Sequence record: PQ330092
Length of the DNA: 64,000 nucleotides
DNA from: Escherichia phage JP4
Direction: 5' to 3' (one strand)
The position numbers were made by a program, and so were the translations under genes. How positions within the stretch are numbered: position 1 is the stretch's first letter; every line of letters begins with the position of its first letter. The notes below the pieces were generated by a model, which was not told the DNA's origin, searched no databases, and saw nothing but the letters and a program-made list of their open reading frames with translations. Shown piece after piece: positions 30,141 to 30,286 of this stretch.

Positions 30141-30168
30141 TTGCAAACTATGTTTAAAGGCGTATAAT
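30141..30168 (+). promoter_or_regulatory. sigma70-type promoter P1, upstream of a structured leader
   Basis: TTGCAA-16-TATAAT. Confidence 0.6.
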
Positions 30169-30174
30169 GTTTTA

Positions 30175-30254
30175 CATCAGGACGGGGAACGAAATAAGTA
30201 ACTTCCCGTTAAGTAGCCCAGGAGTAAGGCACACGAAAAACTCCCCTGATAAAA
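30175..30254 (+). promoter_or_regulatory. conserved ~80-nt leader element, copy A
   Basis: CATCAGGACGGGGAAC..TTCCCGTTAAGTAGCCCAGGAGTAAGGCACACGAAAAACTCCCCTGATAAAA; near-identical at 40056. Confidence 0.45.
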
Positions 30255-30258
30255 TAGT

Positions 30259-30286
30259 TTGACAAATGTTTTTAAAAGCGTATAAT
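30259..30286 (+). promoter_or_regulatory. sigma70-type promoter P2
   Basis: TTGACA-16-TATAAT. Confidence 0.6.

Follow-up and report, generated by a model that had tools for sequence, protein, structure and literature searches.

The leader between promoters A1 and A2 of phage T7, together with a few other promoter-proximal RNAs and promoter repeats, provides the closest described counterparts of the element analysed here. The element is a ~75-nt RNA with a predicted three-helix fold, found in three copies per unit of a tandem repeat in Escherichia phage JP4; it was studied in a 64,000-nt stretch of this genome (record PQ330092; hereafter, the window), where copy 1 lies upstream of the gene at 30319. 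In T7, as predicted for the window, the 5' region of an early host-polymerase transcript is followed by another promoter of the same kind. Both leaders contain the same motif, which in T7 and its group reads UAAGUAG-ACAG and then a 4–5-bp hairpin with the loop AUAAGUC(G/A)(C/U)ACGAAAAA, and their initial transcribed sequences are similar (ATCGAGAGGG in T7, ATCGAGAGCGGG and ATCAGGACGGGG in the window). We know of no function assigned to the A1–A2 segment of T7.

The put RNA of phage HK022 is made by host polymerase and needs no phage protein; like the element, it is ~70 nt long, contains two stem-loops and lies just 3' of early promoters (PMC9378689). However, put follows the only promoter of its operon, whereas further promoters come after the element in the window. 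The leaders of rrn operons and the lambda nut sites share with the element a GAAAA-containing hairpin loop near the 5' end of an untranslated leader, and the rrn P1 and P2 promoters are arranged in tandem ~120 nt apart, as are the promoters of the window. In contrast to nut, the element has a loop of 16–17 nt rather than a pentaloop, the window contains no boxA, and in T7-like phages boxA is 54–412 nt away. In rrn operons, it is boxA that modifies polymerase for all transcription.

In T4-like phages, repeated promoter/stem-loop composites (PeSLs) flank small early open reading frames (ORFs) in plastic regions and are thought to drive modular shuffling (PMC4122927). The promoter cassettes of the window, ~25 per repeat unit, behave similarly, being repeated, ORF-flanking and common to different genomes. 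Compared by description, the two differ in that PeSLs are terminator/promoter composites, whereas the cassette hairpin lies after the start site. The element departs further from a PeSL, as its RNA combines three helices with single strands that are conserved; copies 1 and 2 carry no ORF. We regard it as a promoter-proximal RNA module of phage early regions that goes beyond a plain stem-loop, with a fair chance of representing a new host-directed family of phage RNAs.

The minimum free energy folds of copies 1 and 2 are three-way junctions. The outer helix P0 joins the first transcript nucleotides to the stretch right after hairpin P2, and encloses hairpin Pb, the single strand J and P2 itself (Table 1). 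P0 and Pb correspond to the outer pairing and inner hairpin that an original prediction, made without database searches, had described in this leader. A second CAGGA, which it took for a competitor of the outer stem, is really the 5' arm of P2; this hairpin, the most conserved and best-supported part of the structure, had been overlooked. The core motif consists of single-stranded UAAGUAG-N4 followed by P2, with a 4–5-bp stem and the 16–17-nt loop (A)UAAG-NCRN-ACGAAAA. Pb occupies the place of the plain 5' hairpin of other cassettes. Copy 3, the more divergent relative that had been noted before the gene at 32600, lacks Pb and retains J and P2, and its closing stem is of other sequence (GACG/CGUC plus AUC/GAU). 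The fold energies are unremarkable (z = -1.75, -2.58, and -0.32 for copies 1–3), and the support for the fold comes from comparison with relatives, not from thermodynamics.

This comparison covers 24 distinct cores, over which the P2 stem is 97.9% paired. Three of its four pairs vary on both sides (CG/GC; CG/GC/UA; UA/AU/UG), whereas sliding the partner by 1–3 columns as a control yields 25–53% pairing. The arms occur in at least eight combinations, i.e., CCUG/CAGG, CUUG/CAAG, CCAG/CUGG, GGAG/CUCC, CCUG/CGGG, CAACC/GGUUG, CAAGC/GCUUG, and CAACA/UGUUG, the last three of them from loci picked irrespective of the motif. T7-like leaders show covariation in Pb (CCGG/CCGG, CCAG/CUGG, CCAC/GUGG, CCCG/CGGG), and P0 has six different arm sequences in the large-phage forms, each of which pairs better than 95.5–99.75% of shuffles. 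Conversely, AAGUAG, UAAG and the loop C, A and GAA are near-invariant single strands. Since P2 and P0 remain paired through many arm sequences, selection on RNA pairing is well supported by the alignments, in line with the covariation that the original prediction had proposed looking for in related phages; a secondary contribution at the DNA level may accompany it. In T7-like leaders, pairwise identity is 93% in the core and 55% in the 5' part of the leader, a contrast inflated by the fact that most loci were retrieved by a pattern fixing 18 of the 38 core positions, which weakens it as an argument for the motif. All in all, we consider it very probable that the core is a conserved RNA motif, homologous to the T7 A1–A2 spacer and independent of the downstream gene.

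The link to T7 was apparent from the core of copy 3, a 91% match to Yersinia phages of the T7 group. In T7 itself the motif, TAAGTAGACAGCCTGATAAGTCGCACGAAAAACAGG, is located at 551–588, between the Escherichia coli polymerase promoters A1 (start 498) and A2 (start 626); it lies at +54 from the annotated A1 start and ends 2 nt 5' of the A2 -35 hexamer. T7-like leaders differ from the window in that a longer 5' domain closes on itself before Pb, no P0 surrounds the whole element, the genome has one copy, and boxA and an RNase III site usually lie downstream. Wherever an upstream promoter is readable, the motif falls within the first ~100 nt of a predicted early transcript of host RNA polymerase, T7 being the only motif-bearing phage with annotated starts. 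The start of copy 1 (~30176) was placed by analogy with the annotated A1 start, ...TACAGCC-A(498)TCGAG. The predicted starts of copies 1, 2, and 3 (~30176, 40057, and 32484) put the motif at +35, +33, and +18, respectively.

A 56-nt T7 query matched 488 phage records, 301 of them at 90–95% identity and 98 at ≥99%. The records include Teseptimavirus, T3-like phages, Kayfunavirus, LIMElight and Cronosvirus, as well as phages of Klebsiella, Yersinia, Citrobacter and Serratia. A pattern scan of IMG/VR yielded ~30 T7-like left ends with one motif copy each. A covariance model of the conserved core (J plus the P2 hairpin), named R1, gave 50–65 bits for the leaders of T7 and T7-group phages, with 55–65 bits for the T7, T3-like, K1F-like and LIMElight loci. 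Of 80 loci for which a T7-like RNA polymerase gene was the sole selection criterion, 24 contained the canonical motif at >50 bits. The motif of the KP32-like group is diverged, (U/C)AAGUAG-YCAU-CAACC-GGACAUACGAAAAU-GGUUG, with the 3' arm overlapping the next -35 hexamer, and Vibrio phage ICP3 has the arms CAACA/UGUUG. Pseudomonas phage gh-1 has only a degenerate look-alike, and no motif was found in SP6.

The 85-nt element was also found at 90–92% identity in unrelated coliphages of ~140 kb, namely, Justusliebigvirus (outra, muut, EmilieFrey) and Vequintavirinae (A73, W70, A7_1, A5-4). The layout in these phages is that of the window, with the element's own promoter, the element, a linker and a second promoter, and the gene behind differs: it is a homologue of window gene 28978 in outra, of 33311 in A73, and of 40469 in muut. 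Both window alleles recur, the core of copy 1 being that of outra and the core of copy 2 that of A73 and 121Q. Because the same alleles stand before different genes across phages, the element and its own promoter travel as one module independent of the downstream gene, the second promoter going with the next cassette. Both Pb and P0 are present in the forms of the Rak2-like jumbo phages 7t3 and fENko-Kae01 and of a 366-kb contig; EJP2, LTH01 and metagenomic contigs have short forms that resemble copy 3.

The window is DNA of an Asteriusvirus-type jumbo coliphage; the segment 29900–30500 is 98–99% identical to Salmonella phages SD-6_S16 and SD-15_S21, Escherichia phage fEgEco12 and relatives of PBECO4, 121Q, G17 and phAPEC6. 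It contains an exact tandem repeat (26792–43886 = 46906–64000) with a period of 20,114 bp that reaches the window end. As direct terminal repeats (DTRs) are annotated at the homologous place in the related records vB_Ec-M-J and fENko-Kae01 (DTR 1–19736), the 20,114-bp unit is most likely a direct terminal repeat present twice across the junction. The element copies are located ~3.4, 5.7, and 13.3 kb from the left end of the unit and hence probably in the DNA that is first to enter the cell. R1 found exactly three copies per unit (30210–47, 32501–38, and 40089–126, with twins at +20114), as originally counted, at 50–54 bits, and nothing else in the 64-kb window exceeded 10 bits. A candidate fourth copy at 37569 (TTACATCAAGACGAGAA) was rejected, as it belongs to another repeat family (..CCCAUAGGGUGC..) and is not matched by R1.

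Each unit has ~25 near-identical sigma70-type promoters of the form AAAGTACTTGCA-N16-TATAAT-GTTTTAC, all on the plus strand, and most of them lead straight into a 5' hairpin, a Shine-Dalgarno sequence and a small ORF; a single family of promoter/5'-hairpin repeats has 45 copies in the window. Two promoters of this type flank copy 1 where they had been predicted, and the same layout, with a near-identical element, precedes the gene at 40199. The upstream promoter, P1, of copy 1 is that of the neighbouring 29580 cassette, identical through ...TTTTACATC, up to the first transcribed bases. The downstream promoter (called P2 in the original prediction, a label that we keep for the hairpin) belongs to a small sub-family whose leader is short and has no hairpin; other members are at 40138 and 40409, the latter without an element upstream. 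All downstream genes of the window are preceded by promoters of their own, and the ribosome-binding site of gene 30319 is ~55 nt 3' of the element, past a consensus promoter. What had been described as two promoters for one gene is better read as two adjacent cassettes: P1 and the element form a cassette of their own, whose payload is a folded RNA instead of an ORF, and the downstream promoter is that of the next cassette. The absence of a start codon from the element was also noted originally; it holds for the transcribed part, since the ATG at 30167 lies in the -10 box, 5' of the predicted start. A coding role was rejected, as the only ORF across the element starts at this ATG. Window cassettes and genes are found in outra, muut and A73 as well, and this sharing with Vequintavirinae and Justusliebigvirus suggests PeSL-like modular exchange.

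Table 1. Positions of the element, its copies and neighbouring repeats in the 64,000-nt window
Feature	Position	Strand	Description
P1 promoter, copy 1	30141–46 (TTGCAA); 30163–68 (TATAAT)	+	Sigma70-type, 16-nt spacer; the element's own cassette
P0, 5' arm	30176–81	+	AUCAGG; pairs with 3' arm CCUGAU, 30245–50
Pb hairpin	30182–30209	+	ACGGGGA...UUCCCGU; 30182–88 pairs with 30203–09; directly 5' of UAAGUAG
J	30210–30220	+	11-nt single strand UAAGUAGCCCA; AAGUAG invariant in 24 distinct variants
P2 hairpin	30221–30244	+	GGAGU 30221–25 / ACUCC 30240–44; loop AAGGCACACGAAAA; covarying core
Linker	30251–58	+	A/U-rich, AAAAUAGU; after P0 3' arm
Downstream promoter	30259–64 (TTGACA); 30281–86 (TATAAT)	+	16-nt spacer; 12/12 consensus; next cassette, gene 30319–30930
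Copy 2	40022–40166	+	P1 40022–49; element 40057–40129; next promoter 40138–66; precedes gene 40199
Copy 2, helices	40057–40129	+	P0 40057–62/40124–29; Pb 40063–68/40083–88; J 40089–99; P2 hairpin 40100–03/40120–23
Copy 3	32449–32599	+	Short form without Pb; P1 32449–76; ~55-nt leader to ATG 32600
Copy 3, parts	32484–32545	+	P0 32484–86 and 32489–92 with 32539–42 and 32543–45; J 32501–11; P2 hairpin 32512–16/32531–35
Twin of copy 1	50255–50400	+	Exact; second repeat unit (+20114)
Twin of copy 3	52563–52713		
Twin of copy 2	60136–60280		
Promoter cassettes	27150–46050	+	E.g., 28440, 28900, 29580, 30943, 31198, 33285, 33604, 35188, 35417
Further cassettes	36004, 36439, 39168, 43294, 43599, 44148, 45123, 45992	+	
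Second small repeat	~29912–30005, 35875–35960, 37538–37615, 39895–39976, 43164–43245, 45422–45503	+	
Second small repeat	~27872–27940, 28087–28163, 30020–30093, 31555–31632	-	

Searches outside phages gave no relatives of the element. The whole window had no matches in Rfam 15 at the gathering threshold, and permissive Rfam scans of 29850–30350, the T7 left end and two further motif loci (L004 and L029) produced chance-level matches only; no tRNA or tmRNA genes were found. No match to the element was found in 5,426 E. coli genomes, nor to a strict pattern in the genomes of 185,579 bacterial and archaeal species, and for this reason the motif looks restricted to phages, mostly of known virulent types; that the element was copied from a host sequence or a prophage was rejected on these grounds. 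Proteins encoded downstream belong to PHROGs of unknown function and give no functional clue. Literature searches (Asteriusvirus promoters, T7 leader or non-coding RNA, the sequence string) brought up template listings and no account of the motif, with older papers on T7 and T3 outside their reach. Thus, as far as we could find, a conserved folded block of ~40 nt between A1 and A2 has not been catalogued as an RNA motif in one of the best-studied phages.

Because copies 1 and 2 carry an RNA where other cassettes have an ORF, our favoured reading is that the RNA itself is the product. With all copies in the terminal repeat, 3.4–13.3 kb from its left end, the RNA would belong to the earliest transcripts once the DNA has entered the cell. 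Acting as a sponge, a decoy or a similar trans-acting domain, it would use its invariant single strands (J and the P2 loop) to bind some conserved macromolecule of the host. The folded core recurs in phage families without other common ancestry in the region and compensatory changes keep it paired, which points to a function on something common to enterobacterial (and Vibrio) hosts; this could be, e.g., a defence or RNA-decay factor, or the transcription machinery. The RNA may stay on the downstream mRNA or be cut at the A/U-rich linker; in T7, the cut would be at the RNase III site R0.3. RNase III cleavage at R0.3 parts the A1 leader from the mRNA. The promoter after the element is as strong or stronger (12/12 consensus in the window; A2 and A3 in T7), and since it follows at once, anything acting on all downstream transcripts would be bypassed. 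The several copies per genome suggest that dosage matters.

Like the neighbouring anti-host genes, the element would have an accessory rather than essential function, because a T7 derivative in which a synthetic promoter replaces the whole A0–A3/0.3–0.7 tract shows wild-type growth on a laboratory strain (bioRxiv 10.1101/2021.08.23.457391). We put forward this mechanism, an accessory immediate-early RNA that binds a host macromolecule, tentatively. It is somewhat more doubtful that the motif defines a new family of immediate-early phage RNAs, common to T7-like, rV5-like, phAPEC8-like and Rak2/121Q-like phages, that host polymerase transcribes from the earliest-entering promoters and that neutralise or re-program a conserved host component without translation. 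If the RNA is indeed the effector, it would provide an anti-host function acting before any phage protein exists; even with a modest function, the motif would serve as a marker of host-polymerase early regions and of cassette exchange among jumbo and mid-sized coliphages.

Several points weigh against a free RNA product. The activity of P1, the ends of the RNA, its partner and its effect are all things that we infer. No terminator defines a 3' end, and processing at the linker is assumed. The motif abuts the next -35 hexamer and overlaps it in KP32-like and ICP3-like phages, hinting at a link to that promoter; a purely trans-acting product leaves this tight abutment unexplained. Finally, boxA after the motif in most T7-like leaders fits a co-transcriptional role.

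Such a role is the main alternative, which we consider unlikely though deserving of attention: by the logic of put and nut, the nascent RNA would bind its own host RNA polymerase, alone or with Nus factors, and polymerases initiated at the leading promoter of an early block would become resistant to pauses, Rho or terminators. The architecture agrees with this, as the element is promoter-proximal, ~70 nt long and built of two hairpins with conserved single strands, like HK022 put (PMC9378689). Copies 2 and 3 of the window and the copies of A73 and LTH01 come after terminators. The order of copy 3, promoter–element–gene–terminator, resembles the lambda layout pL–nutL–N–tL1. A perfect boxA lies 3' of the motif, at the distances given above, in ~24 of 33 T7-like loci, and ~16 nt after the P2 hairpin in locus L029. 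On the other hand, a window-wide search for boxA (GCUCUUUAACAA-like) found none with up to one mismatch and chance-level matches at two, large-phage loci have none within the 400–700 nt examined 3' of the motif, and R1 scores at most 7.8 bits anywhere in the genome of HK022, without similarity to putL or putR. Moreover, the motif precedes A2 and A3 in T7, or the downstream promoter in the window, so most polymerases would escape modification, and the T7 boxA lies past A1, A2 and A3 together. A further point against it is the separate promoter of each downstream gene in the window. Also, E. coli polymerase initiated at A1 stops efficiently at the T7 early terminator in vitro, and the T7 derivative with the synthetic promoter is fully infective (bioRxiv 10.1101/2021.08.23.457391). 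Antitermination by the element seems unlikely in T7.

The RNA may have no dedicated function, being an elaborated 5' protective hairpin or an ORF-less cassette remnant spread by recombination at shared promoter cassettes; to this we assign a small probability. The region is a mosaic of ~25 promoter and 5'-hairpin cassettes per unit that are common to other phage families, P0 buries the 5' end as a stabiliser would, and the element is dispensable in laboratory T7 (bioRxiv 10.1101/2021.08.23.457391). However, this does not account for near-invariant strands and compensatory stems across groups whose RNA polymerases share only 62–73% identity, nor for the difference in identity between core and 5' leader in T7-like phages, and in other cassettes a simple hairpin already protects.

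A DNA-level upstream element (UP element, bend or factor site) boosting A2 or the downstream promoter, with an incidental RNA fold, has only a slight probability. It would explain why the motif is 0–4 nt from the next -35 hexamer, or overlaps it, in T7, T3-like phages, Dev-CD-23823, KP32-like phages and ICP3. T7 has AAAAACAGG at -46..-38 of A2, where a proximal UP subsite would be, in agreement with the consensus AAAAAARNR for that subsite; the A-tract of the window copies is shifted by roughly one turn of the helix. Nevertheless, compensatory changes that keep two or three helices paired are not predicted by a protein–DNA site. An UP element would be an A/T-rich block at a fixed position (-40 to -60), but the spacing between the P2 hairpin and the following -35 varies from overlap up to ~55 nt, and behind some copies there is no promoter (none in L029, probably none in copy 3 and EJP2). 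Nor are UAAGUAG and UAAG-NCRN A/T tracts.

The weakest explanation, and a very improbable one, is the gene-specific cis-regulatory leader (riboswitch, attenuator or processing switch) originally proposed to give gene 30319 a second expression mode: the element is indeed a conserved RNA at the 5' end of P1 transcripts that is missing from those of the downstream promoter, and in copy 3 and EJP2 it probably forms a genuine 5' untranslated region (UTR) before weakly related proteins, but its tie to the gene behind did not hold, as downstream genes differ among phages, 30174–30320 contains no terminator-like sites, there is no terminator or anti-terminator, the Shine-Dalgarno sequence is not consistently paired when the leader is folded as far as the start codon, no Rfam family matches, and in T7 ~340 nt and an RNase III site separate the element from gene 0.3.

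Copy 3 has several features of its own. The promoter-like sequence behind it is weak (TTGATA-17-TAAACT, by eye) and its start would fall within the Shine-Dalgarno sequence; this copy is probably a plain 5' UTR. Identical intrinsic terminators (AGCCCACCTTAAACAGTGGGCT and a T-run) at 32378–32399 and 33104–33125 flank the promoter, the element and gene 32600–33082, and the unit looks like a self-contained inserted module. The 160-aa product of this gene is weakly similar to the proteins whose genes follow the motif in EJP2 (E = 6e-5) and 7t3 (E = 0.003) (loci L047, 539–910, and L044, 558–836), which hints that the linkage is kept among short forms and jumbo phages. The C-terminus of the 160-aa protein is, by eye, reminiscent of the DNA-binding domain of H-NS; sequence searches of Pfam and PDB gave no match.

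Some further observations concern the T7-like leaders. In T7 (locus L010, 780–823), a small hairpin GGUC-UAACGAAACCU-GACC lies directly 5' of boxA (GCTCTTTAACAA, 812–823), and its loop recalls by eye that of P2 (UAA..ACGAAA). In the K1F record (L051, 243–458), the annotation includes a protein "gp0.1" that spans the A1 leader together with the motif; we doubt this ORF, since the RNA pairing is conserved and T7 has no annotated gene there. The first ~30 nt of T3-like and K1F-like A1 leaders (L023 and L021) resemble the start of the rrnB P1 transcript (GACACGGAACAACGGC...; L043), a weakly significant match (29/1000 and 7/1000 shuffles, respectively). An origin of the element as a copy of the rrn P1–P2 spacer was rejected, neither the window element nor T7 having significant similarity to rrnB.

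Several repeats accompany the cassettes. The cassette initial transcribed sequences (ACATCGAGAGCGGG.., ACATCAAGGGGAG..) look like the T7 A1 start ATCGAGAGGG. In a second small repeat, a terminator-like hairpin containing a -35 hexamer (AAAGGGATTGACTCCGGTCAGTCCCTTT) is followed by a -10 box and, after it, by the ~45-nt hairpin AGAUA..GCCCAYAGGGUGC..UAUCU. This repeat is present on both strands, and two of its copies lie directly 5' of P1 of element copies 1 and 2. A run of 8-nt-periodic repeats (GGATGGCT / AGACGGCT / AAACGGCT) is located at 27538–27702 (twin 47652–47816), ~750–900 nt from the left end of the unit. Outside the terminal repeat, at 8551–21701, there are 9–10 copies of a 100–150-nt repeat spaced ~1.2 kb apart, which probably mark a family of tandem paralogous genes.

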